The notes: generated by a model not told the origin, from the sequence alone. A DNA stretch of 64,000 bases from a virus (IMGVR_UViG_2911420635_000004:1-64000); one strand, 5' to 3'. Shown: positions 7,135-48,941, numbered from the stretch's first letter. Numbers and translations: made by a program.

Positions 7135-7146
7135 GTTCTCCCCCCC

Positions 7147-8954: not shown

Positions 8955-9647
8955 TTAATCGTAGCACTTAGAGCAATTCTTCATGGAATCCTTCAGAAAG
9001 TTGCTCTGAAGCTCCGGCACAGCGGGAAGCTGGTATCCTTTTGCAATAAGAATGTTCAGTTTAAAATCAACAAAGTTTTTTTCGATTCCAGCCACCTGTG
9101 CGATCTCCTCAAGGGTGGCGAATCCTGTATGCGTGTATTGAAAGTCCTGCAGAAGCTCGTGGTATTTCAAGGCACGGTATGTGCTGGAGCAGTGGGTTGG
9201 CAGAGAAGCCTCCATCTGAAGCCTGTCGGCATTGAATTCATAGAAGCCGATTGGTTTCAGCACATCATCATCTGACAACAGCAGTTCAGCAGCAAACGTA
9301 TTCGCTCTGCGTTCTGCTTTTGCATTGCTGAGACTATAAAAATATGTATCTTGGAAAGCCTGACCGGATGCCGCATGTTTCCGGTCGAAAATGGCGTGCC
9401 CAAGTTCGTGAGCCAGTGCGGATCTGCGTTGTTGCTTTGAGCAGTTTGGATTGATGCCGATGTATTCGCAATTTAGAAGAACCGTGTAAAACCCAAGGAG
9501 CTCTTCGCAGAACCGGATGTCTTTAATTTTAATGGTGCGCTGGGCAATGATAGCTTCTGGGTCATTGCTCTTGTATCGGCGGCTTACAGCGTCGGCGGCA
9601 GTAATAGCAAAGTTGTCCAACAGCGACTCCTTTCCCCTGTAAGTCAA
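8955..9647 (-). CDS. ImmA/IrrE-family metallopeptidase (anti-repressor)
   Basis: LAHELGH zinc motif and downstream ERRANTFAAELL. Confidence 0.88.
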   Translation of the reverse strand: MTYRGKESLLDNFAITAADAVSRRYKSNDPEAIIAQRTIKIKDIRFCEELLGFYTVLLNCEYIGINPNCSKQQRRSALAHELGHAIFDRKHAASGQAFQDTYFYSLSNAKAERRANTFAAELLLSDDDVLKPIGFYEFNADRLQMEASLPTHCSSTYRALKYHELLQDFQYTHTGFATLEEIAQVAGIEKNFVDFKLNILIAKGYQLPAVPELQSNFLKDSMKNCSKCYD

Positions 9648-10142
9648 TTACAGATATTTTTTAGGAGTAAACTTTTTTGCCTCTTCTTTTGCGTCAAGGA
9701 AGAGGGCTTCCATTTCTTTAATAAAATTAGCCTGATCTTCTTCGGACAGCTCGCCGCCTGCAAAAAGGGCAGAGGTCTGTTCTTTTATTTTCTTTGCCTG
9801 CGCTACACCGCGGGAGCCATACTTCTTACGGACGTCAGCGTAGAATTGGTCATCGCTGAGTTCCTTCTGGAAAGTGGCATCATCCATAAAGTAGTCGGTC
9901 GTGACACCAAGAGCAGCGGCAATCTTCTGGATTGCGTCCACACTTGGTTCGCGCTCGCCGGCTTCGATATAGCGGATGGCACGATCAGACATGGATGCTC
10001 GTCTGGAGAGTTCGGCCATGCTCATACCTTGTGCGGTTCGCAGAGCTTTGATCTTTTCACCGTTGGTCGCATTCGGTGTAAGTGCGGTGGCTGCTTCAGC
10101 CCGGACATCCTGTGTGTCTAGTAAGTTCGTATCTTTTTTCAT
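9648..10142 (-). CDS. XRE-family HTH repressor (ImmR-like)
   Basis: IKALRTAQGMSMAELSRRASMSDRAIRYIEAGEREPS; start set at MKKDTN after ggagg RBS. Confidence 0.88.
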   Translation of the reverse strand: MKKDTNLLDTQDVRAEAATALTPNATNGEKIKALRTAQGMSMAELSRRASMSDRAIRYIEAGEREPSVDAIQKIAAALGVTTDYFMDDATFQKELSDDQFYADVRKKYGSRGVAQAKKIKEQTSALFAGGELSEEDQANFIKEMEALFLDAKEEAKKFTPKKYL

Positions 10143-10230
10143 GTCATGCCTCCATGTGGGATATTTTGCTGTTTCTTGCCGGAAGGGAAAGTTGCCGGTG
10201 AGAAGCAGCAATTTTTTTTGTAAAGCCTAC

Positions 10231-10318
10231 TTGACAAGGAACAACTGTTCCTATATACTAAGAACAACAGTTCGTGAACTTCTGTTCCTATAATACAATA
10301 GTAGGTTGTAGAAGTCAA
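10231..10318. promoter_or_regulatory. Face-to-face sigmaA promoters overlapped by three LexA/DinR-type boxes
   Basis: + TTGACA(10231)-N17-TATACT(10254); - TTGACT(10318)-N17-TATTAT(10295); GAAC-N4-GTTC at 10239-50, 10262-73 and 10276-87. Confidence 0.8.
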
Positions 10319-11642: not shown

Positions 11643-12131
11643 GTCGTTTACAGAGAAAAAGTACCAATGATAGTTGCAGCAGCCAGAGAAGAAAAGATGG
11701 CTGTCAGAGATTTTACTGGCAAAATGCACAAAAAAACGACTTGCTTCTGAATTATATGACAAAATTTTCCAGAGCCTATTTACGGACGGAATTATATCTG
11801 ATATAATCAAATTTACCACAAATTGTGGAAAAATATGATTATATAAATATATCGAAATCGTAGTCATATAGGAGGTGTACTGGGAAAGATAGTTGATTGA
11901 TGCCACAATGCTCACCAGATAATTGGGTGAGCGAACGGCGTACAAAGATTACATATTTAGTAAAATTAATTATTTATTTACTGTTGAATTGGCGGCATAG
12001 TGCCGCAGGAAAATCTATTAAATAGTTTAAATGAATTTTTACTAATTTGTTGGGTCGAAGTGCGCTTGTTTGAGGTTGAAAAGTAACTATCAATCTGGTA
12101 CATGCCGGTACATATAGATAAAAGAATCTGT

Positions 12132-12376: not shown

Positions 12377-12727
12377 ATGGTCGATATTCACAGCGAAGAA
12401 TATATATTGGGTCAGAATATAAGAAAGTACCGATTGCGGCTGGGATGGTCGCAGGCAGATTTGAGCAATGCGGTGGATATTGACCGAGCTGACATCTCCA
12501 AGTATGAGAATGGAGCGAAAGGTATAATGAGCAGCACACTGCTGCGTAAATTTGCAAAAGCCCTTGGTGTTTCAATGGACGCACTGATGGACGAAGAAGA
12601 GCCGGAAAACACAGCGGCTTCAATTCAAGAAAAATATGAGAAGTTGAGCTCCAGGCATCAAGAGATAGTAAAAGAAACCATTGATGCGTTCTTATTCCAA
12701 GAAAGTCATGTGGCTATGGCTGGTTAA
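12377..12727 (+). CDS. XRE-family HTH regulator (phage repressor/Cro-like)
   Basis: IRKYRLRLGWSQADLSNAVDIDRADISKYENG; strong RBS ggaggtgg. Confidence 0.9.
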   Translation: MVDIHSEEYILGQNIRKYRLRLGWSQADLSNAVDIDRADISKYENGAKGIMSSTLLRKFAKALGVSMDALMDEEEPENTAASIQEKYEKLSSRHQEIVKETIDAFLFQESHVAMAG

Positions 12728-12831: not shown

Positions 12832-13205
12832 GAAGTGTGGCTTATCTGCCATCTGCAAGAGCCTTTCCAACTGGTAGACTATAAACAGTTCAAGGGACAA
12901 GCCCACAGAGCCAATACGAAAGTTCCTGTCGGCAGTACCTCGGACAAATAAAAAATATCGAAGCCCGATTCTAGAGCAGGCGAAGGATACCATAAGCGAT
13001 CTGACAGCACAGCAGAGTTATTTGCTGGAGCTGGAGGACTGAACATGGGATCATTCTAACCTTCTTTAGAACCGGGCTTTTTGCGCCTTTTGACCGCAGA
13101 GTCTGTCCGTTTCATGAGGATGCCGCGAATCTGCCATGTATGTTCTTCAAAGCCAGAGCCTTCAGTATCCTTCCCTCCCAGAAGTCCGGGGGAAAGGACA
13201 AAACA

Positions 13206-13961
13206 ATGATGAACATGATGACTGGAGCAGTAGCAATCAACGGTGGAGTAGGTGTGATGGAGGTTCGCCAGCCGCAGGTGGCAGTCAGCCAGATGGTAGC
13301 AAGCGCGGCACAGGCTGCAGAGCAGGTGGCTCTGAATGCACACATCACCCTGCGTGAGCTGAAAGGAATGATCGACACTGTGGTGGAGAAGAAGCTCCCG
13401 ACTTTCAAGACCCTCATGGAGATGAACCCGGTGGCAGTAGCCCGCACGAGCGTGAACGGTGCAAAGCTGACGGCCTATGAAAACGGCTATGCAGTTTACG
13501 AGGTGGACAGTGCCCACACTGTCATGGTCGTGGATCGCTGCGGAGATTACCGCTACGATTTCACCGATGGCACACACCAGATCGTGCCGGCAGAGACTTT
13601 CGAGGATGCCGAGTGGAGTCTGCGCCTTCTGATGGAAGGGGAGAAGCGTATGGAACACAACTTCAGTAAGACTGCTGCAAAGTTTGAGCAGGTGCCGCTG
13701 GAGTGCGATGGCTCTGACTGGTCCGCTTTTATTATGGTGGACTTTTGGGATGAAGACAATGCCGAGATGCTGGCAGACAAGGAACTGCGCCGTCTGTATG
13801 CTGCCATGAGCAAGCTGACCGAGCGTCAGATGGAAGTGGTCCAGCTCTACTTCTATAAAGGTATGACCCAGCAGGAGATTGCAGAGGAAATTGGTATCGG
13901 CCGCCGTTCTGTTGGAAACTGCCTGGAAGGTGCTTTGAAAAAAATCAGAAAAAACTTTTAA
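13206..13961 (+). CDS. Sigma-70 region 4 domain protein (phage sigma-like regulator)
   Basis: C-terminal LTERQMEVVQLYFYKGMTQQEIAEEIGIGRRSV. Confidence 0.8.
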   Translation: MMNMMTGAVAINGGVGVMEVRQPQVAVSQMVASAAQAAEQVALNAHITLRELKGMIDTVVEKKLPTFKTLMEMNPVAVARTSVNGAKLTAYENGYAVYEVDSAHTVMVVDRCGDYRYDFTDGTHQIVPAETFEDAEWSLRLLMEGEKRMEHNFSKTAAKFEQVPLECDGSDWSAFIMVDFWDEDNAEMLADKELRRLYAAMSKLTERQMEVVQLYFYKGMTQQEIAEEIGIGRRSVGNCLEGALKKIRKNF

Positions 13962-30347: not shown

Positions 30348-30707
30348 ATGCCGTACAGACCAAAGACACCGTGCCATCATCCCGGCTGCCCGGAGCTGGT
30401 GGAAGCCGGCCGGCTCTACTGTGAGAAGCACCTGCTTCTCCACCCGGAAGTAACCCGCCCGGCGGCGAAGCGTGGATACAACAGGCGGTGGCAGAAAGCC
30501 CGAAAGTCATATCTCGAAGCTCATCCGCTCTGTGTGCAGTGCGCCAAGCAGGGTAAGTACGTCCGGGCAACGGTAGTGGATCACATCATTCCGCACCGTG
30601 GTGACCAGAAACTTTTCTGGGACCAGAACAACTGGCAGGCTCTCTGCAAGAGCTGCCACGATAAGAAGACGCTGACCGAGGACATCAACCCGACCTACAC
30701 CTACTGA
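30348..30707 (+). CDS. HNH endonuclease (packaging-associated type)
   Basis: CxxxxC, RGYNRRWQKAR, PLCVQC, VVDHIIPH, NWQALCKSCHDKKT. Confidence 0.92.
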   Translation: MPYRPKTPCHHPGCPELVEAGRLYCEKHLLLHPEVTRPAAKRGYNRRWQKARKSYLEAHPLCVQCAKQGKYVRATVVDHIIPHRGDQKLFWDQNNWQALCKSCHDKKTLTEDINPTYTY

Positions 30708-30709
30708 CA

Positions 30710-30810
30710 CCCCCACCGGGGCCGGGGTCACTTCTCTACAGTGAAGTCACACGGAGACCGGTGGCCCCTTTTGCGTGAAAAACCGCAAAATTCATAGGCC
30801 GGGGGTCAGA
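30710..30810. other. Putative cos/packaging region
   Basis: GC-rich non-coding stretch (ccccaccggggccggggtc...gaccggtggcccc...cgcaaaatt) right after the HNH gene, where cos lies in many HK97-type Firmicutes phages; positional inference only. Confidence 0.4.
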
Positions 30811-31107
30811 GGAATAACGACGCAAAATGAAACAGGAAAATGTACAGGCATCGGAGCTTCGGTTCCGGTGCCATTCTTTTTCCCCGAAATGAACCAAAGT
30901 GTGTGAAACCTCTCGTAAACAGGGAGCTTTCGCACATTTTAGCTTGTTCCGGGAGGAGCAGGGGCGAGCGGGAATCGGCCGCCGCAACAACGATCCAACC
31001 TGGCGGGGCAGTGCCGATTTCAACTTCGCTGCTTTTCGTATGTATTTTGAAATTTTTCTAAGAAACCGCCGAAGAAACGGCGAAAAATGAGAGTGAGGTG
31101 AGGGCAG

Positions 31108-31428
31108 ATGGAAGATTACACGGCTGAGATGATCAGGGACATGGCTTTTTCCTTCTGCCCTCAGTGCGGTACGGCAATCGTACCAAACCATAAAGGCAGA
31201 CCACGGAAGTTCTGCTCACCGGAATGCCGGTCACGGTGGAACAACACCCATCCAAAGCCGGAGAACTGGAAGACCGTGCGGTCGAAGATCTGCCCGGTGT
31301 GCGGCAGGGAGTTTTCCTACCGGCGCCAGTATGGTCTGGAACGGAAATATTGCAGCCGTGCCTGTGCAAATAAAGGACGCTGGAAGGAGGGCGATGCAAA
31401 TGGAAGAACCGCTGAACATAGAACGTGA
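31108..31428 (+). CDS. Zinc-ribbon repeat protein
   Basis: Two CxxC...(F/Y)CSxxC units. Confidence 0.7.
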   Translation: MEDYTAEMIRDMAFSFCPQCGTAIVPNHKGRPRKFCSPECRSRWNNTHPKPENWKTVRSKICPVCGREFSYRRQYGLERKYCSRACANKGRWKEGDANGRTAEHRT

Positions 31429-31894
31429 TGTGGTAAAGAACGGTGTCCGGCTGGACTGTGTGTTTGAGGGCTATGAGTACCGCTCGGAGAGAGAAGAAGT
31501 CCGAAGCCAGCGGCTTGCAGGGTTTGAATGTGTGGAGATCGCAGAAAACACAGGGCTTTCTTTGGAACAGGTCACAGATTACTGCCGGGAACTGGGTCTG
31601 CCGGAAACGGGGAGCTGCCAGTTACAGCCACCGGATGGGTCGGGGGAACGGCGCTGTCCGGTTTGCGGACGCATTCTCGTACAGAGAGGGAACAGTGGTC
31701 GGAGACGGTTCTGTTCTCCGGCTTGCCGGGAGGAATATTACAGGCAGCATAAGCCTTTTCGGATCGCGGTCTGTAAAAACTGTGGAAGGGAGTTCCATGC
31801 CGTAGATGAAGGAAAACGGCAGCGGAAGTTCTGCAGTCTGAATTGTTACTGGGATTATCGATACGGGATGAAGGGAGTGGATGAGGGTGAGTAA
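31394..31894 (+). CDS. HTH + zinc-ribbon repeat protein
   Basis: EIAENTGLSLEQVTDYC HTH plus two CxxC...FCSxxC units; RBS ggagg before ATG 31394. Confidence 0.7.
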   Translation: MQMEEPLNIERDVVKNGVRLDCVFEGYEYRSEREEVRSQRLAGFECVEIAENTGLSLEQVTDYCRELGLPETGSCQLQPPDGSGERRCPVCGRILVQRGNSGRRRFCSPACREEYYRQHKPFRIAVCKNCGREFHAVDEGKRQRKFCSLNCYWDYRYGMKGVDEGE

Positions 31895-36481: not shown

Positions 36482-36576
36482 ATTTACACAACAGGTTTTG
36501 CAGTCCCTTGTGTAAATGGTCGAACATGAAGAATATCGGGAAATGGCCTTGCTATTCATCCGTTTTAGAGTGATAT
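36482..36576 (+). promoter_or_regulatory. Cassette promoter unit 1 (operator IR + promoter)
   Basis: ATTTACACAA-N16-TTGTGTAAAT; TTGCTA(36549)-N16-TGATAT(36571). Confidence 0.7.
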
Positions 36577-36639
36577 ATGTGCTACCGAAAAGAACATCGG
36601 GATGCACAAAAACAAATGAACGAAAAGGAGCGATGAATT

Positions 36640-37824
36640 ATGTTGAAATTTAAACTGAACGTAGCCGAGAGAAAGACCCTCGCAAAACGCATGGAGGAGC
36701 TGACCGGCATCCACCCTTACTATACCAAAGCACCTCTGTATTCTTACGACATCGGGAGCTACACCATCGACCGGAATGGCAACCTTCTGGTCGAGCCGGA
36801 GAATGCAGATGCCGAGCTGCTGACGACCCTGCTGAATGAGGGACTGATCCGCGGCGGCGAGAGTATTGAGAGCACGGATGACCAGCCGGAGGACACAGAG
36901 CTGACAGCGGATATGGATGAGGAGCCTGTGACCGAAGCGGAAACTGAGCAGATGCCCGAAGCAGAGCTGGAGGTTCTGGACGAGCAGGAATCCGAAGATG
37001 CAGATACCGCAGAAGATGAACCTGCGGAAGCAGGAGCCGAGGATGCATTGGAGCCGGACAATACGGCTGAGGATGATACCATAGAGGATGAGCCGGATGC
37101 AGAATCGCAGGAGACAGAAGATCAGCCGGAAGAGGTGCCGCTGGACTTGGAACTTGCATTCCCGGTCAGCCAGCACAACGGTGTGACTCTCCGCAACCTG
37201 GTCAACCTTCTTTACAGCCGCGGCAAGCTCATCGGCAAGGCGACTGGAGGACACTTCCATGTGGAAGAGGGGCTGGTCGAGAAGCTGAAGGACGATAGCT
37301 GCACCTTTGCCATCATGAACTTCATCAATGCGGTCAGCGACTATGAGACTGAACATGGTGCTGCACTGGAAGGCCTGAAGATCACCACCGAGAAGGTCAC
37401 CTTTACCGGCTTCCCGACTGCACCGGACCACGAACATCTGACGGCTTTTGCACAGCTGGCGGTGCTGATGAACCAGCAGGCTATCAGCCAGAAGCGCATC
37501 CAGGCAAAGGATGTCAACGATGAGAATGAGAAATACGCACTCCGCACATGGCTCCTGCGGCTGGGGATGAACGGTCCGGATTTCAAAGAGACACGCAAGA
37601 TCCTCATGGAGAACCTTTCCGGTCATGCGGCTTTCCGCACGGATGAGGAAGCACAGAAGTTCCTTGCAAGGGAAAAGGCAAAACGGGATGCCCTGAAAGC
37701 CGCGAAACTGGCGGCACAGAACGGCGATCCTGCCACAGGGGAAACGGTCGCACCGGATACGACCCAGCCGACACAGCCCGACTGTGGGGCAGACACGGCG
37801 CAGATGCTGGAGGCGGGAGCGTAA
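36640..37824 (+). CDS. Hypothetical protein with acidic linker and amidoligase-like C-terminal domain
   Basis: C-terminal NEKYALRTWLLRLG..F...RKILMENLSGHAAFR resembles the end of the adjacent amidoligase. Confidence 0.65.
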   Translation: MLKFKLNVAERKTLAKRMEELTGIHPYYTKAPLYSYDIGSYTIDRNGNLLVEPENADAELLTTLLNEGLIRGGESIESTDDQPEDTELTADMDEEPVTEAETEQMPEAELEVLDEQESEDADTAEDEPAEAGAEDALEPDNTAEDDTIEDEPDAESQETEDQPEEVPLDLELAFPVSQHNGVTLRNLVNLLYSRGKLIGKATGGHFHVEEGLVEKLKDDSCTFAIMNFINAVSDYETEHGAALEGLKITTEKVTFTGFPTAPDHEHLTAFAQLAVLMNQQAISQKRIQAKDVNDENEKYALRTWLLRLGMNGPDFKETRKILMENLSGHAAFRTDEEAQKFLAREKAKRDALKAAKLAAQNGDPATGETVAPDTTQPTQPDCGADTAQMLEAGA

Positions 37825-37929
37825 GCTCCCAATCCCCCCAATGGGGGCCGGAAAATATGCGAGACCCTCTTCCATTGTACCGATATTAGCTCTGAAAATG
37901 TACATTATCAAGCGGATAAACTGCAGAAA

Positions 37930-38010
37930 TGTACACGATCAATCTGCCTTATATTTGTCGAATATATGTTCTTTTATATCCTTGCTATTATCCGCACCTG
38001 ACGGTAATAT
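37930..38010 (+). promoter_or_regulatory. Cassette promoter unit 2
   Basis: TGTACAC upstream; TTGCTA(37982)-N17-TAATAT(38005). Confidence 0.75.
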
Positions 38011-38057
38011 GCACATACCGAAAGGGAAAACAAGGAAAAAACAAAGGAGAACATACC

Positions 38058-38996
38058 ATGAACGATAAAATAAGAGAGCAGATTGAAACCATGAAGAACC
38101 AGACCATCGGGGTTGAGATCGAGATGAACAACATCACCAGAGAAAAAGCGGCAAGAAAGGTCGCTGAGTACTTCGGAACCAGAGCATGGAACGCGGCCAG
38201 CGAGTACGGATATTACAGCTGGGCTTGCAAGGACCAGCAGGGCAGGGTTTGGAAATTCCAGAGGGATGTGAGCATCTACGGACCGGACGCAGAAAAATGC
38301 GAACTGGTCACCCCAATCCTCACCTACGACGACATCGAAACCCTGCAGGAGATTATCCGACTGCTCCGAAAGGCAGGCGCAAAGAGCGGCCCAAGCCGCG
38401 GATGCGGGGTTCACATCCACATTGGCAAAGGCGACCACACCGCAAAGACCATCCGCAACCTTGTGAATATCATGGCGGCGCACGAACAGCAGATCGGCAG
38501 AGCCATCCGAATCGATGCAGGGCGCACCGGACAATATTGCCAGGTGGTCAACCATCGCTTCCTCGACCGGCTGAACCGCGAGAAGCCGACCACCATGCGC
38601 AAGCTGGAAGACATTTGGTACGAAGGCAACGGTTCCAGCTGGGAAAACCGAAATGCCCACTACAATTCAAGCCGGTACCATATGCTGAACCTCCATGCCA
38701 CCTTCACAAAGGGAACCATTGAATTCCGCCTTTTCCAATTCGCAGACCCAGCGGACGGAAAGCGCAATGGACTGCATGCCGGTGAGATGAAAGCCTACAT
38801 CCAGCTTTGCCTCGCAATGAGCCAGCTTGCCAAGATGGTCAGAACGGCAAGCCCGAAGCCCCAGCAGACCGACAACGAAAAGTACGCGATGCGGTGCTGG
38901 ATGCTGAGGCTGGGATTCATCGGGGATGAATTTGCAACGGCAAGGGAGATCCTTCTGCGGAACATGGAGGGCAACGCATCCTGGCGGAACAAATAA
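38058..38996 (+). CDS. Putative amidoligase (COOH-NH2 ligase family 2)
   Basis: IGVEIEM, ELVTPIL, GCGVHIHIG, RYHMLNL, TIEFRLF motifs. Confidence 0.85.
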   Translation: MNDKIREQIETMKNQTIGVEIEMNNITREKAARKVAEYFGTRAWNAASEYGYYSWACKDQQGRVWKFQRDVSIYGPDAEKCELVTPILTYDDIETLQEIIRLLRKAGAKSGPSRGCGVHIHIGKGDHTAKTIRNLVNIMAAHEQQIGRAIRIDAGRTGQYCQVVNHRFLDRLNREKPTTMRKLEDIWYEGNGSSWENRNAHYNSSRYHMLNLHATFTKGTIEFRLFQFADPADGKRNGLHAGEMKAYIQLCLAMSQLAKMVRTASPKPQQTDNEKYAMRCWMLRLGFIGDEFATAREILLRNMEGNASWRNK

Positions 38997-39063
38997 GCCG
39001 GGATGCACGGGCACCTTTTGGGCGGGCAACCGCCCTTGAGGTGGTAGAAGGAGGTGCAGGTTT

Positions 39064-39300
39064 ATGAAAAGCACGTTAAAAAATGAAAACACACCGAGTG
39101 GCAGAACCTTTAAGGTGACCATCACCGAGACCTACCAGAGAACGGTGACCATTTATGAATCCGAGATGAAAGAGCCGACCGTGGAGGAAGCACAGCGTGT
39201 GGCAGAGGACTGGTGGCAGGACAGCCAGATCGAGCTTGGGACAGAGGATTTCCAGGGCGTGGAATTCACTGGCAGGGAGGACGGTGAGGCAGATGTTTGA
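39064..39300 (+). CDS. DpnD/PcfM-like small protein
   Basis: FKVTITETYQRTV....EEA....W....I.L...DF.GVEF pattern. Confidence 0.6.
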   Translation: MKSTLKNENTPSGRTFKVTITETYQRTVTIYESEMKEPTVEEAQRVAEDWWQDSQIELGTEDFQGVEFTGREDGEADV

Positions 39301-39814
39301 GTTGATCAGCCGAGTCCCATCCAGATATTATCTTGCCTACGGAAGCAACCTCGACATGGAGCGGATGGGAAAGAGATGCCCCTACGCTGTGGTGGTCGGC
39401 ACGACCGAGATCAAGGGCTACCGGCTTCTGTTCAAAAAGAGCAAGACCGGCTGCTATGCCACCATCGAGCAGGATGCCAATGAAAGCGTACCTGCGGTGG
39501 TCTGGAAACTCTCGGAATACGATGAACTCCTGCTGGACCGGTACGAGGGCTGCCCACGATACTACTACAAGAAGCAGTTCCAGCTTCCGGTCTGGAACCT
39601 GAACGGGAACCGCATGAAAAAGGCAAAGCCCTGCATCGCTTATGTGATGCACGAGGACCGGCGGCTTGGCTGCCCGGATGCCGAGTATTTTGAACTGCTG
39701 CAGGGCGGATACAGCGACTGGAAGTTTCCGCTGGATACACTGAAGCGTGGACTGGCAGCCAGTATCGGAAGGGCGGAAGCCATCCGGTATCTGAAGAAGC
39801 GGCAGATGATGTAA
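39293..39814 (+). CDS. Gamma-glutamylcyclotransferase (AIG2-like) 1
   Basis: YLAYGSNL, RCP, LDRYEG..YY motifs. Confidence 0.88.
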   Translation: MFELISRVPSRYYLAYGSNLDMERMGKRCPYAVVVGTTEIKGYRLLFKKSKTGCYATIEQDANESVPAVVWKLSEYDELLLDRYEGCPRYYYKKQFQLPVWNLNGNRMKKAKPCIAYVMHEDRRLGCPDAEYFELLQGGYSDWKFPLDTLKRGLAASIGRAEAIRYLKKRQMM

Positions 39815-39816
39815 GA

Positions 39817-39895
39817 GTACACGATCAAAAGCAAATAACATTGTGCAGTATATGATGCTCATCGGCCTTGATAAATCAGGGCAGAAGAGTGATAT
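39817..39895 (+). promoter_or_regulatory. Cassette promoter unit 3
   Basis: GTACAC...TTGTGCA upstream; TTGATA(39868)-N16-TGATAT(39890). Confidence 0.65.
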
Positions 39896-39944
39896 ATACC
39901 ATACCGCCAGACAAGAGCGGAGAAAACCGAAGGGAGAGATTCAA

Positions 39945-40424
39945 ATGAAGAACAAGAAATATTACATCGCCTACGGCAGCAACCTGTCGGTGGAGCAGAT
40001 GGCATACCGGTGTCCGGATGCAAAAATTGCAGGACAGGCGGTGCTGGCAGGCTGGGAGCTTTTGTTCCGAGGCTGCGCTACCATCGCACCGAACCCGAAG
40101 AAGAATACGCCGGTTCTGGTGTGGGAGATCTCGGAAAGGGACGAAGGAAACCTCGACCTCTATGAGGGCTACCCGAACTACTACCGCAAGGAAGACCTGA
40201 ACATTGAACTGCTCCGGGAAGAGGCAGAGCCGGAGATGGTGACCGCAATGGTCTACATCATGGAGAACGACTTCGGACGCCGCTCACCGAGCCGGTATTA
40301 CTACAAAGTCCTGCATGACGGCTACAAGGCATTCCACTTCCCGATGCACATCCTCGAAGGTGCGCTGAAGGAATGCATGGATAAGGATGCCGCCCAGCGG
40401 ATGATCGAGGAGGTGCAGGCATGA
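39945..40424 (+). CDS. Gamma-glutamylcyclotransferase (AIG2-like) 2
   Basis: YIAYGSNL, RCP, LDLYEG.P.YY, PSRYY motifs. Confidence 0.88.
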   Translation: MKNKKYYIAYGSNLSVEQMAYRCPDAKIAGQAVLAGWELLFRGCATIAPNPKKNTPVLVWEISERDEGNLDLYEGYPNYYRKEDLNIELLREEAEPEMVTAMVYIMENDFGRRSPSRYYYKVLHDGYKAFHFPMHILEGALKECMDKDAAQRMIEEVQA

Positions 40425-40888
40425 ATTTCGCAGATCAGAAAATGGTCAAGAAGTTGAGAAAAGAGTTCCCGGTCGGATGCCGGATCGTCCTCGATGAGAT
40501 GGATGACAGGCAGGCACCACCCATCGGAACGCAGGGAACCTGCAACGGGGTCGATGATGCCGGAAACATCTTAGTGAGCTGGGACACCGGAAGCCATCTG
40601 AACGTTGCCTACGGCGCGGACAGTTGCCACCGTGTGGCAACGGATGCCGAGGTCAAGGTGTCGCTTGACCGCCTTGGTAAAACGCGACAGACCGGCCCAC
40701 GTTGCCCCAGGTGCGGAGCAAAGCCTGACTGTTACGACCATCAGCAGCAGGCACTCAGCCGAAGGGCGGACATCCAGATCTGCAACCGCTGCGGAACGGA
40801 GGAAGCATTAGAGGACATTGCATGGGGCGGACAGCAGAAGATGCATCTTGCAGACTGGGCAATCGTGAAAGGGGGCTGGGTCGAATGA
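40421..40888 (+). CDS. DUF4314-like protein with C-terminal zinc ribbon
   Basis: FPVGCRIVLDEMDD...PPIGTQG...VDDAG.I.V.WD.G..L; CPRC...CNRC. Confidence 0.7.
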   Translation: MNFADQKMVKKLRKEFPVGCRIVLDEMDDRQAPPIGTQGTCNGVDDAGNILVSWDTGSHLNVAYGADSCHRVATDAEVKVSLDRLGKTRQTGPRCPRCGAKPDCYDHQQQALSRRADIQICNRCGTEEALEDIAWGGQQKMHLADWAIVKGGWVE

Positions 40889-41256
40889 AAGTTCTTCTGA
40901 TCAAACCGATGGAGCATCCGCAGGTGGTTGACATTGAAAACTCCCTGAAAGAGTTCTACCGCATCCTCGACTGCGACTGCATCACAGCCACCTACCCGTG
41001 GAAAGAACGCGCCGCCCTGGTCACCGATGACAACGGTCTGTTCACCGAGAAGTCATTCAGCAGATACATCCCGGAGCTGGAGCAGCCCATCAAGGGAAAC
41101 TTCTTCATCTGCGGACTGGGAGAGGAGGATTTCGCAGAACTGCCCCAGGACCTGATCCGGAAATTCAAGGAACGCTTCTGGGTGCCGGAGGCATTCGTCA
41201 GCATGTTCGGGCAGATGGCAGTCATCCAGATGGATGACGGAACGAAGCCGGAATAA
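40885..41256 (+). CDS. DUF3846-like protein
   Basis: MKVLLIKP....V.I...L...I.G.FFI.G...EDF..L pattern. Confidence 0.6.
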   Translation: MKVLLIKPMEHPQVVDIENSLKEFYRILDCDCITATYPWKERAALVTDDNGLFTEKSFSRYIPELEQPIKGNFFICGLGEEDFAELPQDLIRKFKERFWVPEAFVSMFGQMAVIQMDDGTKPE

Positions 41257-41327
41257 GATACCGCAATCAGAAAAATACCCTCTCGGCCAGAAAAGACCGG
41301 GAGGGCTTGGTTTAACAGGAGGAGCCT

Positions 41328-41519
41328 ATGGGACACAGAAAGATGCCTGCTTATGGCGAGAGGGAACACGGCGGCAGATACGTTCTGGATGAATACGAAT
41401 GGTCGAGAAACCACTGCAAGGCGGTGACCATCCGCAGATGGAAAAGGGATCTGAAAAAGAAAGCCAGAGCGCATAACCGCAGGGTGATGCATCAGGCAAT
41501 ACAGGGCGAAGCTGATTAG
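41328..41519 (+). CDS. Small basic hypothetical protein
   Basis: 63-aa ORF with ggagga RBS. Confidence 0.5.
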   Translation: MGHRKMPAYGEREHGGRYVLDEYEWSRNHCKAVTIRRWKRDLKKKARAHNRRVMHQAIQGEAD

Positions 41520-41569
41520 ACGGAAAATGGGGGCCTCAAAAGAATGAGAACCCCCTTCCAGTTTACTGT

Positions 41570-41648
41570 ATATTACCTCTGGAAAGCAACGATAGCAAGG
41601 AAAACCGCCGCCATAATGTACACAAACATCTGGCAGCGGTTTTGTGTA
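41570..41648 (-). promoter_or_regulatory. Cassette promoter unit (minus strand, no downstream ORF)
   Basis: TACACAAA..TTTGTGTA IR at 41619-41648; TTGCTA(41598)-N17-TAATAT(41575). Confidence 0.7.
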
Positions 41649-41719
41649 TCATACCAGACCAAAACGGAGGATACGAGGCAGAGTCCCAGCTTCTGCTGGG
41701 GGGAGCCTTTTGGGATTCC

Positions 41720-41971
41720 TTAGAAGAAATCCCTCATGCTCATGCCGACCTCGTTCAGTCGTTCTTCCATGCTGTGGTAGTGCCAATCCTCTTCCTCTTC
41801 TTCGGCTTCTTCCTCAAGCTCCTCTGGGAAAGGGTCGTGCCGCCATCCGGCTTTCTGGTATTCTTCTTCCCGAATGTCGTTGCGGTCGTAAATGTCCAGC
41901 TCGTATTCTTCTTCAAGCTCTGTGATGCGGTTTTCGATTGCGGTTTCAACTTCTGTAATGGTCTTTTTCAT
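41720..41971 (-). CDS. Small very acidic protein
   Basis: MKKTITEV...EELEEEAEEEEEDW; cggagg RBS; own cassette promoter. Confidence 0.7.
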   Translation of the reverse strand: MKKTITEVETAIENRITELEEEYELDIYDRNDIREEEYQKAGWRHDPFPEELEEEAEEEEEDWHYHSMEERLNEVGMSMRDFF

Positions 41972-42021
41972 GGTTTTTGTCCTCCGTTTTTGGTTTGGTT
42001 TTCTTTGCTTTCGTTGTGTGT

Positions 42022-42149
42022 ATAATGCCGCAGAAACACATATATAGCAAGTCAATCAGGGGTCATATATGTACCAAACATGAGGGACGAAGATCGTTGA
42101 TAATATGACGTTTTATGGCCTTGCTATCACAGGGCGGTGACGGTAATAT
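42022..42149. promoter_or_regulatory. Back-to-back cassette promoter units
   Basis: - TTGCTA(42050)-N17-CATTAT(42027); + TTGCTA(42121)-N17-TAATAT(42144). Confidence 0.75.
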
Positions 42150-42180
42150 ACAGCTACAAAAAGCAAAGGAGGACAACAAA

Positions 42181-42357
42181 ATGGCTGATTGGAGAACATG
42201 GAAAAAGGGAAGAAAGACAACATGGCACTGGAACGAATTTGATGGAAGCGGAAGCCGGGAAGGAATCATCACCGAGGTTCATGAAGACCACGCGATCATG
42301 GAAGCAGACGGCATGCACCTCTGGATCGACGATGACACGGCAGAGATGTTCAGCTAA
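42181..42357 (+). CDS. Small cassette protein (58 aa)
   Basis: ggagg RBS; follows a cassette promoter. Confidence 0.65.
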   Translation: MADWRTWKKGRKTTWHWNEFDGSGSREGIITEVHEDHAIMEADGMHLWIDDDTAEMFS

Positions 42358-42387
42358 GAAAAACGGGGAGGGAAACTTCCCCGGATA

Positions 42388-42467
42388 AACACATAAATCC
42401 ACCAGTTCAGGGCGCAGATGATTGTGTACTTTAGCCGCTTGATAGTATCCGGCAGTGACGGTAATAT
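42388..42467 (+). promoter_or_regulatory. Cassette promoter unit
   Basis: ACACATAAATC..GATTGTGT; TTGATA(42439)-N17-TAATAT(42462). Confidence 0.75.
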
Positions 42468-42497
42468 ACAGCTACCAAAACGAAAGGGGCAAAGAAC

Positions 42498-42704
42498 ATG
42501 GAACGCTACACTTACGAGGTCACCTTTACACGGCTGGATGGACAGCCGGATGAAATCCAGCAGCACACTAGCGAGGAGCTGGCAAGAGAATGCTTCCGGC
42601 TTTTTGATGAGCCGGACAGCGCAGAGATGTACAGCAAAATCGAACTTAGCCGCCATGACTGGGAGACAGGCATGGATGAAATTCTGGAAACGATGACATT
42701 CTGA
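42498..42704 (+). CDS. Small acidic cassette protein (68 aa)
   Basis: D/E-rich ORF directly after the promoter unit. Confidence 0.65.
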   Translation: MERYTYEVTFTRLDGQPDEIQQHTSEELARECFRLFDEPDSAEMYSKIELSRHDWETGMDEILETMTF

Positions 42705-42719
42705 GAGGAGAACAAAAAC

Positions 42720-42980
42720 ATGACCTACACAAAAATCAACCTTTACCTTGCAAACGGAATTCCGGAGGCACTCAGCAACCTCTGGTACGGAAGCGACAGC
42801 TCGGTGGTCGAGATCAGGGATGCCGTTGAGGATGCGAAGAACGGCAAGGACCTTCTGAACCGTATCCAAAAGATGAAGCTCCTTCGGAAATTCACCCTCG
42901 ACAGGGAGAACGACAAGCGCATCCGCTTCAAGGGAACGGACTGCTGGGGCAACGTAAGCTACCTTAAAATCATCCGCTAA
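42720..42980 (+). CDS. Small cassette protein (86 aa)
   Basis: ggaga RBS; followed by GGGCTGG/CCAGCCC + T-tract terminator. Confidence 0.65.
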   Translation: MTYTKINLYLANGIPEALSNLWYGSDSSVVEIRDAVEDAKNGKDLLNRIQKMKLLRKFTLDRENDKRIRFKGTDCWGNVSYLKIIR

Positions 42981-43060
42981 AGGCAAGGCCGACAGGCGCA
43001 AGGGGCTGGAAATGACCAGCCTTTTGCTCGTGTCTGTCTTCCGAAAGCTGGCATGAAAAG

Positions 43061-43138
43061 CACATGAATATGACAATTACAGGGCCGAATGATTGTGTAG
43101 TTTAGCCGCTTGATAGTGCTCCGAGGTGACGGTAATAT
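43061..43138 (+). promoter_or_regulatory. Cassette promoter unit
   Basis: GATTGTGTA..TAGCCGC TTGATA(43110)-N17-TAATAT(43133). Confidence 0.75.
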
Positions 43139-43182
43139 ACAGTCACCGAAAGGGGAAAACAACAAAAACGGAGGATACGACA

Positions 43183-43632
43183 ATGACGAAGAATGAAGAC
43201 CGCATCAATAAACTTTTCAAGGAACTGGTACCGGATACGGGCAAGGCAGACAGCCTCGCAGGGGAGCTGGTAAGGGCAATGAGCCGCATCGGATACCGCT
43301 TTTACAACGACGGCGACCAGCTGGGCATCGGCTACGGCAAGGAAACCTGCAACCCTGCAGGGCGGTTCCTTGGAGCCAAGGGCAACGACAAAATCGCAAA
43401 GCTGACTGCAGATGCCTGGGCAGTCTACAGTGAGGAAGCCTACGAAAAGGTTCTGGACATCCTTTGCGGAGCGGTTGCCGACTATGTTGAGCAGAACCCA
43501 GACCTTAGAAACCAGCCGACCGAAGATATGTGGGATTTCAAGGATGAGGAAGAAGACCAGGATGACAGCTGGGATGAAGAGGAAGATGACTGGGGCGAAG
43601 AGGAAGATTACGAGGACGAAGAAGACTACTAA
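43183..43632 (+). CDS. Cassette protein with hyper-acidic aromatic-punctuated tail
   Basis: 23 of the last 32 residues are D/E, interspersed with W/Y. Confidence 0.7.
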   Translation: MTKNEDRINKLFKELVPDTGKADSLAGELVRAMSRIGYRFYNDGDQLGIGYGKETCNPAGRFLGAKGNDKIAKLTADAWAVYSEEAYEKVLDILCGAVADYVEQNPDLRNQPTEDMWDFKDEEEDQDDSWDEEEDDWGEEEDYEDEEDY

Positions 43633-43686
43633 GCCAGAGAAACACATGGGGCTTGCCGGTAACGGTAGCCCTTTTCTTCTGCCGTA

Positions 43687-43758
43687 ATACGCACAGTTCC
43701 GGGGGAACATATTTGTGTAGTATAGCCGCTTGATAGTGTGTGACATAGACGGTAATAT
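43687..43758 (+). promoter_or_regulatory. Cassette promoter unit
   Basis: TTTGTGTA..TAGCCGC TTGATA(43730)-N17-TAATAT(43753). Confidence 0.75.
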
Positions 43759-43802
43759 GCACATACCGAAACGGAAAACCAAGAAAAACGGAGGAAAGCA
43801 CC

Positions 43803-43994
43803 ATGAAGAAGAACATCACCAAGGAAGAGGAAAAAACCCTGCTGGAGATCGCCAAGCGCCTGATGGCAGCGGTGGACAGCCGGGGCGACCTCGAAGCCCG
43901 CGACAATGACAGCGAGGACTTCATTGAGGTTCCGGTCTGGGGCATCCAGAAAGCAATGGAGGAAGCCTACCTGCTGGGACGGATGACCAGATAA
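43803..43994 (+). CDS. DUF6900-like small protein
   Basis: L..R..D..DF.EV.VW.I..A.E.AY..G pattern. Confidence 0.6.
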   Translation: MKKNITKEEEKTLLEIAKRLMAAVDSRGDLEARDNDSEDFIEVPVWGIQKAMEEAYLLGRMTR

Positions 43995-44122
43995 ACCGGC
44001 AGCCCCCGACACAGCCCCACACAGGGGCTTGTGCCACGGGTGGCAAAACGATCCGAAGGAACTGACAACGCCCCACACAGGGGCAGATGTGGCGGCGTGG
44101 ATGCGCCGGGAAGGAGAAGCAC

Positions 44123-44329
44123 ATGGAAGAACGGATGATGGATACCATCGTGGAAATCTACAACCACATGGATGACAGCGATAAGGATGCCTTCACGTTG
44201 GAAGATGCCGAGGATATGGTGGAAGACCAGATCAGGATGGATAAGGAAGCCGGACGGGAATCGCTGGCATATGACCCGCAGTTCTTCTACGATACCATTG
44301 TGGAACTCATGGAGCAGGACGAAGAGTGA
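44123..44329 (+). CDS. Small very acidic protein (68 aa)
   Basis: ggaga RBS; D/E-rich. Confidence 0.6.
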   Translation: MEERMMDTIVEIYNHMDDSDKDAFTLEDAEDMVEDQIRMDKEAGRESLAYDPQFFYDTIVELMEQDEE

Positions 44330-44407
44330 TGTACATTCTGCTTGGTATTCCGGGCAGAAGATCGTGTACTTTAGCCGCTTGCTATCCTTTGCACCTGACG
44401 GTAATAT
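44330..44407 (+). promoter_or_regulatory. Cassette promoter unit
   Basis: GATCGTGTACTTTAGCCGC TTGCTA(44379)-N17-TAATAT(44402). Confidence 0.75.
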
Positions 44408-44463
44408 GCACATACCGAAAGGGGAAAGCCCCAAGGAATAACGAAAACACGGAGGATTTTACC

Positions 44464-44748
44464 ATGAAAATGCATTTGATTGACTTTCCAGAGGACAACA
44501 TCAGCATCGAGAGCTTCTACGACCGACTCAGACCTTGCTACGACAGCATCATGCAGTTCGGTGACAGGGTTCTGGTTGCCCAGATGAACTGGAACGGCAT
44601 GCTGGAGGGAGCGGTATACGGCTTTGTGGAAGACCCGGAGGAAGGCTGGTCACCGATTGAGTGCCGATTGGAGCTTCTGAAGATTTCCGATGAGACCTAC
44701 ACGGATGCCGGTCACGCAATCGAGTGGTGCATCAAGAACGCACACTGA
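44464..44748 (+). CDS. Small acidic cassette protein (94 aa)
   Basis: cggagg RBS; followed by a TTCG-loop terminator hairpin. Confidence 0.65.
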   Translation: MKMHLIDFPEDNISIESFYDRLRPCYDSIMQFGDRVLVAQMNWNGMLEGAVYGFVEDPEEGWSPIECRLELLKISDETYTDAGHAIEWCIKNAH

Positions 44749-44809
44749 AAAAGGGCAGAGCTCCTTCGGGGGCTTTTGCTCGTAGTGGCGGATTTCTCCG
44801 GCGTGTAAA

Positions 44810-44889
44810 TACACATAAATCCGACAAAAAGAGGTGTGTATGATCGTGCAGCATAGCCGCTTGCTATGTCCGGGCAGTGACGGTAATAT
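44810..44889 (+). promoter_or_regulatory. Cassette promoter unit
   Basis: TACACATAAATC..GTGTGTA; TAGCCGC TTGCTA(44861)-N17-TAATAT(44884). Confidence 0.75.
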
Positions 44890-44947
44890 ACAGTCACAAC
44901 GAAGGGAAAAGCCCTACGGAAAACAAAACACACGGAGGATACAGACC

Positions 44948-45325
44948 ATGACGAACAAAGCAAAAATCTACCTCAAGAACATTCAGGAAGCCGACACCGA
45001 GAAGAAGCTGATCGGCATCGAGATCGCCTTCAAGCAGGACATGACCCTCAGCTGCAACGACCTCGGAAGCCTTTGCAGGGCGGCAGAAGACAAGCGGTAC
45101 AGCCTGCGGAACAACGAGGAAACGTTGAAGCTGAAGCAGATCCTTTTCTTCCGGACGAAAGCGGAGATGGATGCCTACCACGACATGAGCCGCAAGCCGG
45201 AAGACTGGACAGAAGCGGAGATCGAGCAGCAGAGAAGCCGCTTCTGCAGCGTCTGGCAGGTCATCGAGGAAGCGGAGCTGGTCGATGAGTACGAGGCTTG
45301 GAAGGAAGCCAACCCCAACGCATAA
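44948..45325 (+). CDS. Cassette protein (125 aa, helical)
   Basis: cggagg RBS; follows a promoter unit. Confidence 0.65.
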   Translation: MTNKAKIYLKNIQEADTEKKLIGIEIAFKQDMTLSCNDLGSLCRAAEDKRYSLRNNEETLKLKQILFFRTKAEMDAYHDMSRKPEDWTEAEIEQQRSRFCSVWQVIEEAELVDEYEAWKEANPNA

Positions 45326-45457
45326 CAGCACCCAAAAGGTACACGCCCCGAAAAGGGGCTGTGCCTCGTATCCGATGTGTTTTATATAAAGTTGTCAAAA
45401 TGGGAAACTATTTACTATTCATACGAAAAAGTTTCTCGTTTGGGAAAATGATATTTT

Positions 45458-45482
45458 AAGGACTTCTTCGGAGGTCCTTTTT
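45458..45482 (+). terminator. cUUCGg terminator just upstream of the terminase genes
   Basis: AAGGACTTC TTCG GAGGTCCTT followed by a T-tract. Confidence 0.7.
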
Positions 45483-45516
45483 CTTTACCCATTTTTACAG
45501 AAGGGAGGGGAAGCCA

Positions 45517-47969: not shown

Positions 47970-48941
47970 TTAAGAATTGCTGATGAAATTTTGAAGCTGG
48001 TTTAAGTGTGCGCGCTGCTGAGTTCCCAAAATCTGATTGCAAATGTTGGGCGAAATCTGAGTTCTTAATAAGTCTGTGCAATCAATAAAGGAACTCACAA
48101 ATTGCTTACAGGCCGTTTTGGTTTCTCCCATCTTTCGTAATATGTAAGTAATCAGGATTATGTAGGCGTCAATGTATTTGAAGTCAAGACCTGTAATGCC
48201 TACTTCTGTTTCAAGAAGCGAAATAAGGCGTTTGTTTATTGTACTTGTCTGAAAACGAGTATCAAAGATGGTGTTGTTATGTGCAACAGCGTTTCGTAAA
48301 TCTTTGACAGCGTAAATCATGTATTCGGTGATTTTTCCATCTGAATCCAGATTGCTTGGCAAGTGAAGTATGCTCGAAGTCTTCAATTTGACATTTGCAT
48401 TTGAGCAGGCGAAAAAAGTACCAAACTCTCCCAACGTCAGTGATTCAAAAACAGCCCAAATAGGAATTGGGCGGTCAGTATCAAAGAAATGGTTGACAGT
48501 TTGCTTCTGATTTGAGTAATCACGCAAAAGTGCATTATTGATTTTTCCCTTGAGGGTCATCCGCTTTGCATATTGCTTGTGGTACTGTTGGCTTCCAGGA
48601 GCGTAGGACTGATAAGCAGTAATGGATTTATTGAAAACGACATCGAGATTTTCTGATTTGCTATCTTGAAGCACGGCTTCAATCACATAACTTTTCAGTG
48701 CGTTTTCAATGAACATTACTTTTGGATAAATCAAAGTCTTCAACTGCATATCAAATTTATTTAACGCTATGACTTCATCAAGCGATGAAAAAGGAATACG
48801 TTGGTTTGGCGTGCGGATGAAGCGGTATCCTTTGTATCCATGATAGTAGCCAATGTTTCGTAGTGATTGAGCCTGATTGCTTTTAACAGAAATCTGGTGA
48901 TGATTTCTCAAATATTTCATAAGCTGATTGATTGACAGCAT
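47970..48941 (-). CDS. Abi_2 (AbiD/AbiF-like) HEPN protein, moron
   Basis: IGYYHGYKGY, FDMQLK..IENALKS, PIWAVFESLTLG, LRNAVAHN; low GC; own TGCTATAAT promoter (48973-81) and GGAGG RBS. Confidence 0.85.
   Translation of the reverse strand: MLSINQLMKYLRNHHQISVKSNQAQSLRNIGYYHGYKGYRFIRTPNQRIPFSSLDEVIALNKFDMQLKTLIYPKVMFIENALKSYVIEAVLQDSKSENLDVVFNKSITAYQSYAPGSQQYHKQYAKRMTLKGKINNALLRDYSNQKQTVNHFFDTDRPIPIWAVFESLTLGEFGTFFACSNANVKLKTSSILHLPSNLDSDGKITEYMIYAVKDLRNAVAHNNTIFDTRFQTSTINKRLISLLETEVGITGLDFKYIDAYIILITYILRKMGETKTACKQFVSSFIDCTDLLRTQISPNICNQILGTQQRAHLNQLQNFISNS

Follow-up and report, generated by a model that had tools for sequence, protein, structure and literature searches.

The DNA considered here is a 64,000-nucleotide window, bases 1–64000 of the 85,347-base contig IMGVR_UViG_2911420635_000004, and belongs to a temperate siphovirus of gut Clostridia. 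Between its DNA methylase genes, which extend to 36416, and terS lies the hyperplastic accessory-gene region of this phage (36482–45325), which a sequence-only reading had described as 11 copies of one operator and promoter unit that cut the prophage into single-gene expression cassettes. The −35 hexamers of all 11 units were found at exactly the positions and on the strands proposed: 36549, 37982, 39868, 41598(−), 42050(−), 42121, 42439, 43110, 43730, 44379 and 44861. Generic promoter and terminator scans proved too coarse, and a 48-nt weight matrix was therefore built from the units themselves and scanned over the whole contig and five shuffled versions of it. The units scored 24.7–59, the shuffles peaked at 5.5, and outside the array a single contig site exceeded 8 (10.5, at 74453); the repetition is real and lies far beyond chance. 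With each unit left out of the matrix in turn, ten still scored 20–53, and the copy at 39868 failed (−0.2) because it carries a rarer −10 variant, AGAGTGATATAT, found otherwise only in the copy at 36549. A twelfth unit, overlooked in the sequence-only reading, is located on the minus strand (TTGATA at 37911–37906, a 17-nt spacer, then TAATAT). The matrix-detected units are confined to 36.5–45 kb of the 85-kb contig, with none in the 23-kb replication block or the late operon, so the picture of an array that cuts up the whole prophage was overstated: only ~9 kb (36.5–45.3 kb) are organized in this manner. The 12 copies comprise seven close and five diverged ones, and the term "one unit" is apt for the seven (37982, 42121, 42439, 43110, 43730, 44379 and 44861), which are 60–85% identical in their cores and have exact 18–33-mers in common. 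It is less so for the diverged copies; those at 36549, 39868, 41598(−) and 42050(−) have only the common layout, the −35 and −10 hexamers and the operator arms.

Each unit measures ~130–190 bp and consists of an upstream hairpin (in most copies), a two-armed inverted repeat that serves as the putative operator, a promoter of the form C-TTG(C/A)TA-N17-TAATAT, and a leader made up of ACCGAAAGG, an A-rich stretch and GGAGGA. The heptamer TAGCCGC precedes the −35 in five of the 11 units. The perfect inverted repeat reported for the first copy, ATTTACACAA-N16-TTGTGTAAAT, is present with 10-bp arms and a 16-nt spacer; arms of up to 16 nt occur (e.g., CATAATGTACACAAAC / GTTTGTGTACATTATG), and the best short form is TACACGATC / GATCGTGTA. 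A conservation profile was compiled from 354 distinct unit variants collected from related loci. Near-invariant positions in this profile are the C before TTG, the TTG-TA of the −35, CGGTAATAT followed by aCA, and ACC-AAAGG in the leader, whose 3' part is an A-rich run ending in GGAGGA 6–9 nt 5' of the ATG. Alignments of orthologous units likewise show both operator arms, the −35, the −10 and the leader to be better kept than the spacer between the arms. In 103 representative units, the proximal arm (GTGTA) starts 15 nt before the −35 in 53 and 25–27 nt before it in 19, and the distal TACAC peaks at −50/−51 relative to the −35 hexamer. Given two positions for the proximal arm and a constant one for the distal arm, the arms are spaced at 36 or 25 nt, a difference of one helical turn. 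The operator is positioned upstream of the −35, with its centre at roughly −66 or −71. In the divergent pairs 37911(−)/37982(+) and 42050(−)/42121(+), exactly 70 bp separate the two −35 hexamers, and each pair has one palindrome, so that the proximal arm of one promoter is the distal arm of the other. The arm motif was also sought elsewhere on the record, including the lysogeny switch and other intergenic regions, and nothing above shuffle level was found. An Rfam search of 36–46 kb (E up to 1) returned just two sub-threshold chance matches, and the leader corresponds to no known RNA family.

Hairpins are located 5' of eight of the 12 units, ~60–100 nt upstream and not inside or overlapping the promoter; there is none at 39868 or 44379, and some of these hairpins have a common tail, CTTTTGCTCGT. 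The proposal that several units end in their own terminator agrees with the terminator-like hairpins found 3' of eight genes, those ending at 37824, 41256, 41519, 42357, 42980, 43632, 44748 and 45325, although the generic terminator scan did not rise above shuffled sequence. Two of the minus-strand units, 37911(−) and 41598(−), lack an open reading frame (ORF). Their homologous leaders of ~45 nt, GTA-A-TGGAAG-GGG-TCTC...GGCCCCCATT, end in a G5/C5 hairpin, and both are directed, antisense, into the 3' ends of plus-strand operons. The 41598(−) unit is kept in nearly all relatives. Such ORF-less units could yield small RNAs or serve as convergent-transcription insulators.

The units are followed by zero to four ORFs, a slightly wider range than the one to three small ORFs first proposed. 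Unit 1 (36482–36639, plus strand), one of the diverged copies, combines the perfect inverted repeat with TTGCTA at 36549, a GATATA/TATATG-type −10, a leader and a ribosome binding site (RBS), and stands 5' of a 394-aa gene (36640–37824, plus) whose very acidic product, with an isoelectric point (pI) of 4.3, aligns with the central portion of PHROG 2443 ("amidoligase enzyme"). The twelfth unit (37830–37911, minus), with its ORF-less leader and G/C hairpin, overlaps the 3' end of this gene in antisense. It shares its operator with unit 2 (37912–38057, plus; TTGCTA at 37982, TAATAT, leader), which precedes cassette B (38058–39814, plus), encoding an Amidoligase_2 protein (38058–38996), a DpnD/PcfM-like protein (39064–39300) and a GGACT/AIG2-like protein (39293–39814). 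The diverged unit 3 (39815–39944, plus; arms TACACGATC / TTGTGCAG, TTGATA at 39868) leads into cassette C (39945–41519, plus), with a second GGACT/AIG2-like gene (39945–40424), DUF4314 (40421–40888) and DUF3846 (40822–41256) genes and an ORF for a basic 63-aa protein (41328–41519). Unit 4 (41520–41660, minus) has TTGCTA at 41598, TAATAT, a palindromic operator at ~41610–41655, and an ORF-less leader with a GGGGG...CCCCC hairpin and ATTTTCC; unit 5 (41720–42050, minus; TTGCTA at 42050) precedes a gene for a hyper-acidic 83-aa protein (41720–41971). Between these two, at 41660–41720, lies a promoter-less plus-strand remnant of a unit. In it, one operator arm abuts the leader and RBS AAAACGGAGGATACG (~41668–41682), no ATG comes next, and the predicted terminator of the 83-aa gene on the minus strand lies beyond; it looks like a decayed cassette.

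The remaining cassettes are all on the plus strand. Cassette E (42051–42357) has a palindromic operator in common with unit 5, and contains unit 6 (TTGCTA at 42121) and a 58-aa gene (42181–42357). In cassette F (42358–42980), a hairpin and unit 7 (TTGATA at 42439) precede genes of 68 aa (42498–42704) and 86 aa (42720–42980). Predicted terminators open cassette G (42981–43632; unit 8, TTGATA at 43110; an acidic 149-aa product encoded at 43183–43632) and cassette H (43633–44329; unit 9, TTGATA at 43730; a DUF6900 gene at 43803–43994 and an acidic 68-aa product encoded at 44123–44329). Cassette I (44330–44748) pairs unit 10 (TTGCTA at 44379) with an Nmad4 gene (44464–44748), and cassette J (44749–45325) comprises a predicted terminator, unit 11 (TTGCTA at 44861) and a 125-aa gene (44948–45325). 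The array is separated from terS by a unit-free spacer (45326–45516, plus) rich in hairpins, including a strong predicted terminator at 45458–45479 just 5' of terS. Apart from the families named above, the array is populated by orphans: nine of its 17 products belong to no family in Pfam or PHROGs. Twelve of the 17 have a pI of 5.3 or less, and several are proteins of 58–94 aa with a pI of 4.1–4.7. DpnD/PcfM, DUF4314 and DUF3846 are typical cargo of conjugative elements, and the families of the array as a whole are those commonly seen in the accessory or "establishment" gene sets of such elements and in systems that modify nucleotides or peptides. From this we infer that the cargo acts in DNA or protein modification and in anti-defence.

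A search with TerL gathered 371 related IMG/VR stretches (relatives are given L numbers below), and TerL matches were also obtained in prophages of Faecalibacterium intestinale, Clostridium fessum, Blautia faecis and other Clostridia isolates. The units recur in related prophages: they occupy equivalent places in all close relatives and are kept in hundreds of related contigs. Diverged units are still recognizable down to ~84–88% TerL identity (L093, L151, L158, L090 and L099). At 80% identity or less, L127, L112 and L142 have no comparable repeated unit and L108 has two copies of the 36549 type, which indicates that the architecture is specific to this clade. A pattern scan of IMG/VR for the unit identified more than 112 stretches, and all 14 of those sampled were syntenic with the phage family described here, giving no evidence that the unit moves between phage families. 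The nearest named records in the databases are a "Bacteriophage sp." fragment without annotation (MT836278) and the Javan prophages of Streptococcus (TerL 76% identical). A separate observation concerns the hosts. Positions 35996–57618 of the window are 95–96% identical at the nucleotide level over ~19–20 kb to L081, L082, L098, L083 and L084, with TerL 99–100% identical, and these near-identical prophages reside in isolates of F. intestinale, C. fessum and B. faecis/Blautia spp. Faecalibacterium on the one hand and Blautia and C. fessum on the other we take to represent two different orders of Clostridia; for a single phage, such a range of hosts is unusually broad.

The gene content of the array differs cassette by cassette among the relatives. 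Clustering of ORFs at the protein level gave too many spurious ORFs, and the cassette map was consequently drawn from clustering of the DNA payloads; this gave 22 different cassette orders among the 52 loci with a full upstream flank. Three-way alignments established several chimeric units. In L019, the upstream half of the 42121 unit is fused to the leader and gene of the 42439 unit, the switch falling within a shared 21-mer, and the 58-aa cassette is missing. In L044, the 37982 unit is joined to the 39868 unit at the −35 with the loss of 1,877 bp (the amidoligase, DpnD and GGACT genes), and in L041 the 43730 unit is joined to the leader of the 44379 unit, with a different gene from the ATG onward. 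Other loci show replacement, gain and movement: the Nmad4 gene is swapped, between leader and terminator, for an unrelated ~300 bp in L054, L063 and L077; an extra cassette of 630–650 bp with its own unit lies between the 68-aa and 86-aa genes in ~20 loci; and cassette E follows G, instead of preceding F, in L080, L090 and L191. The spacer at 45326–45516 is a hot spot of insertions of 0.7–1.5 kb. Among 76 indel endpoints, representing 38 clustered events that include five chaining artefacts at contig ends and are not phylogenetically independent (shared ancestry being uncorrected), 30 fall in units, which cover 17.8% of the array (2.2-fold; binomial P ~7e-6), and six of the 38 events have both ends in units against ~3% expected, about a 5-fold excess. 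Neither an invariant gene order nor breakpoints unrelated to the repeats was thus found, and the alignments support the proposal that recombination between copies of the unit has led to the gain, loss, exchange and relocation of cassettes among relatives. Several paralogous units in L040, L046, L054 and L045 have TTGAAT or TTGCAT in place of TTGATA or TTGCTA, and in this lineage the unit at the 44861 position has a spacer resembling that of the 43730 unit; these shared features point to gene conversion among the units, or to a −35 that has evolved together with the factor reading it.

Roughly half of all endpoints are located away from the units, at start codons or RBSs, at gene ends or inside genes, from which it follows that units are preferred, not exclusive, crossover points. 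This proportion, together with the strong divergence of five units and the presence of the commonest gene order in many contigs, is what would be expected if the repeats were passive remnants of serial promoter duplication, neither co-regulated nor of importance for recombination, with the differences between relatives due to illegitimate recombination and mosaicism. We consider this improbable, as the functional positions are kept over the 354 variants while the flanks drift, the crossovers of the chimeric units fall in shared stretches, and both single endpoints and paired ends are enriched in units. The sequence-only reading had also likened the layout to that of an integron, and short cassettes in an array with a repeated element between them do invite the comparison. 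However, a site-specific cassette-capture platform of this kind is extremely improbable here: no integrase or other site-specific recombinase is encoded in or beside the array, there is no IntI, attI or attC and no attC-like folded site (Rfam finding nothing), and each cassette has its own promoter in place of a single Pc, leaving none of the defining features of an integron. The crossover points, moreover, vary in position within the homologous stretches, which points to homologous recombination.

The closest known kind of arrangement is the promoter-early stem-loop (PeSL) cassette of T4-type myoviruses. PeSLs are repeated motifs that combine a sigma-70-like promoter and a stem-loop and end in a Shine-Dalgarno sequence; they are clustered upstream of orphan genes in hyperplastic regions, and close relatives differ by indels and replacements that arise through recombination between PeSLs (Arbiol et al. 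2010, PMC2839356; Comeau et al. 2014, PMC4122927). The array resembles them in having a promoter of housekeeping-sigma type (−35 and −10) within a repeated motif, here in 12 copies predicted from sequence; in the placement of its units in a variable region, before non-essential or orphan genes, with the Shine-Dalgarno sequence and start codon at the end and none in replication or virion modules; and in the indel and replacement junctions that lie within the motifs of close relatives by way of homologous recombination. It differs in that the hairpin is upstream of the operator, whereas in PeSLs it lies inside or overlaps the promoter, and in that ~12 copies are gathered in one 9-kb block in place of ~50 scattered ones. 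PeSLs belong to lytic T4-like phages, whereas this is a temperate siphovirus of Gram-positive anaerobes with a P27-type TerS, a Javan-like TerL (76%) and an ImmR/ImmA module. Four defining features of PeSLs are found here in full or in part, and shared descent and a T4-type phage are not, so that the units are an analogue of PeSLs and not members of the class; since the concept is the same, the modular cassette is not new as a kind. What is new is the phased two-armed operator, the shared transcribed leader, the symmetric, back-to-back divergent pairs and the ORF-less antisense copies, all peculiar to the present units, and their occurrence in a temperate phage whose hosts are gut Clostridia. 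In line with the sequence-only reading, no description of the unit for this phage family was found in the literature, and the only close database records are unannotated.

For regulation, the nearest parallel is offered by the establishment regulons of the plasmids p576 and pLS20. The strong promoters of p576 are under the control of a single repressor that the element itself encodes, which results in a transient burst on entry, and pLS20-family conjugative plasmids have establishment regulons termed EGeRS1 and EGeRS2 (Val-Calvo et al. 2021, PMC8708921); plasmid leading regions more generally carry anti-defence genes (PMC11541004). The likeness consists in one conserved regulatory sequence placed before several variable, mosaic operons of anti-restriction type on a mobile element of Firmicutes. 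The plasmid units are 400–750 bp long, against ~130–190 bp in the phage, and there is no single-stranded DNA (ssDNA) stage here. Other phage systems are more distant. The host-takeover module of SPO1 has many strong early promoters before small genes. The morons of lambdoid and other temperate phages are single accessory genes flanked by their own promoter and terminator; moron promoters, however, are unrelated to one another and usually expressed from the prophage, whereas here one unit with a common operator is reiterated. The start-associated sequences (SAS) and extended SAS of Cluster K mycobacteriophages and the stoperators of Cluster A are said to be short motifs reiterated before many genes and linked to regulation; these are reportedly 13–17-bp motifs with no promoter core, and we know of no report of them as cassette recombination points.

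The remainder of the genome supplies some candidate partners for the array. On the immunity side are an ImmA-type peptidase and an XRE repressor (8955–10211), a second XRE gene (12377–12727) and a gene for a sigma-like protein (13140–13961) that has a clear sigma-70 region 4 and matches phage sigma-factor PHROGs; region 2 was not detected in this protein. At 10211–10300, beside the XRE/ImmA-peptidase pair, promoters of the form TTGACA-N17-TATACT and TATAAT are overlapped by three palindromes of the GGAACA..TGTTCC type, which constitute a probable immunity operator unrelated to the inverted repeat of the array. GGTACAT repeats 5' of a 116-aa XRE gene (~12095–12125) were considered as a version of the operator arm and set aside as only a loose resemblance. 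Beside the immunity module, as in SPbeta-type elements, are genes for a YolD-like protein and a Y-family (ImpB/UmuC-type) polymerase (6682–8619, minus). A 23-kb plus-strand block encodes a DUF2800 nuclease, an Enc34-type ssDNA-binding protein, a family A polymerase, an SNF2 helicase, a MazF-like domain, a D5-type primase, a SAM synthetase, an HNH protein and three DNA methylases. In the non-coding segment 28770–29277, which follows the primase gene, eight of the 13 AGCAACA heptamers in the window surround an AT-rich core and occur in either orientation; this segment is likely an iteron-type replication origin. A 400-bp GC-rich and hairpin-rich non-coding stretch (30707–31108) comes after the HNH gene, 15 kb before terS, and a zinc-ribbon gene is located at 31331–31894. 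The P27-type TerS gene (45517) and the TerL gene (45996) lie 3' of the array. The segment 47846–49015, with a 323-aa minus-strand ORF (47970–48941), is missing from the otherwise collinear prophages L081, L082 and L098 and is, judging by this comparison, an inserted moron between the TerL and portal genes. No consistent genome terminus could be derived from the contig ends.

Taken together, we regard it as probable that the ~12 copies represent a portable terminator-operator-promoter-leader unit that creates co-regulated accessory cassettes, which are recombined through their shared stretches. The hairpin would stop incoming transcription and so insulate the unit, and host RNA polymerase with sigma-A would fire the promoter; with −35 hexamers matching at four to five of six positions, a 17-nt spacer and a −10 of TAnnnT, the promoters are most simply read by the host housekeeping sigma factor. 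The shared leader and GGAGGA would confer uniform and strong translation, such that any ORF placed 3' of a unit becomes its own transcription unit, and the common operator would place all cassettes under one phage-encoded factor and one signal. A repressor is favoured for this factor because the promoters look strong unaided, and by analogy with the p576 establishment genes and with Aca-controlled anti-CRISPR operons, in which a repressor governs a burst of expression followed by shut-off, the cassettes may be expressed in a burst on entry and shut off later or in the lysogen. The identical stretches of 18–33 bp may act as substrates for homologous recombination by which cassettes are deleted, inserted, swapped and moved, possibly assisted by the DUF2800 nuclease and the Enc34-type ssDNA-binding protein that the phage encodes. 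Several points speak against this model, in addition to the artefactual and non-independent indel events and the endpoints outside units described above. The generic promoter and terminator scans recovered just three to four units, with no enrichment over shuffles; the grounds for an anti-defence role are the acidity and small size of the products and their mobile-element-type families only; and the operator, being upstream of the −35, is placed more typically for a class I activator than for a repressor. No operator-binding protein was identified: the ImmR-type repressor region has its own, different palindrome, and the basic 63-aa and 86-aa array products, considered as regulators, gave nothing in Pfam or PHROGs and unnamed viral clusters only in the ESM Atlas, with an uninformative AlphaFold single-sequence model for the 86-aa protein (predicted local distance difference test score 45). 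Finally, plain sigma-A promoters do not usually conserve a C before the −35, CGG before the −10 and ACA after it as strongly as the units do, and the sigma-like gene co-occurs with the units.

Two other accounts of the regulation draw on these last points. The inverted repeat may be a phased class I activator site, the cassettes being off by default and co-activated by a phage or host activator, e.g., late in the cycle or in the lysogen. Phased activator positions are known from CRP and ComK boxes, and the arms lie wholly upstream of the −35, with the proximal arm at two positions one helical turn apart and the distal arm constant, which fits a face-of-helix contact with polymerase. Yet promoters with this −35 match and optimal spacing should need no activator, and no candidate for one was found; we hold this account to be possible though distinctly the less expected. 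The units might alternatively be a phage-specific promoter class read by the sigma-like protein, forming a middle or delayed-early regulon in place of an immediate-early one under host sigma-A. In its favour, beyond the clear region 4 and the PHROG matches, the near-invariant C at −1 of the −35 and the CGG/ACA around the −10 look like the marks of a dedicated factor, and the units of L040, L046 and L054 have changed their −35 alike, from TTG[A/C]TA to TTG[A/C]AT. A homologue of the sigma-like protein (E 1e-25 to 1e-30) is also present in four of four genomes whose prophages carry strong units and, weak region-4 matches aside, absent from five of five relatives lacking units and from another whose units are weak. 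This co-occurrence is confounded by phylogeny, however, and the homologues are just 35–37% identical despite the conserved promoter core; the hexamers and the 17-nt spacing fit the host factor, whereas phage sigma factors usually have a distinct consensus, and the protein has no detected region 2. In L189 (5595–9690), homologues of the sigma-like gene and of a DUF7768 gene precede the last unit and terS by ~1 kb, not by 32 kb; L189 may have a rearranged or reduced genome, and since the place beside terS is the usual one for a late-gene activator, a late-gene role for the sigma-like protein is possible. On this evidence we judge a dedicated sigma regulon to be unlikely.

A broader proposal, which we advance only tentatively, is that the unit is a portable "expression adapter" whose dedicated regulator, either the sigma-like protein or an operator-binding protein, reads the helically phased operator and times an anti-defence burst in hosts of two orders. 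Were this so, a phage that is nearly unchanged across Faecalibacterium and across Blautia and C. fessum could express a shuffled anti-defence repertoire in any of its hosts, and the antisense units without an ORF would be sources of small RNAs, or convergent roadblocks shielding one cassette from the next. The units are also candidate parts, as strong, insulated and possibly broad-host promoters and RBSs, for genetically difficult gut Clostridia. If they function as predicted, they would mark the fast-evolving accessory or anti-defence genes of a very common human-gut prophage family, and the pattern C-TTGMTA-N12-GACGGTAATAT provides a sequence handle by which such genes may be harvested from metagenomes. 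With this array the PeSL principle, that regulatory repeats drive modular shuffling, is extended beyond lytic T4-type phages to temperate ones that infect Gram-positive anaerobes, and because a common operator is added to the repeat, a single regulator could control a regulon whose members can be shuffled.

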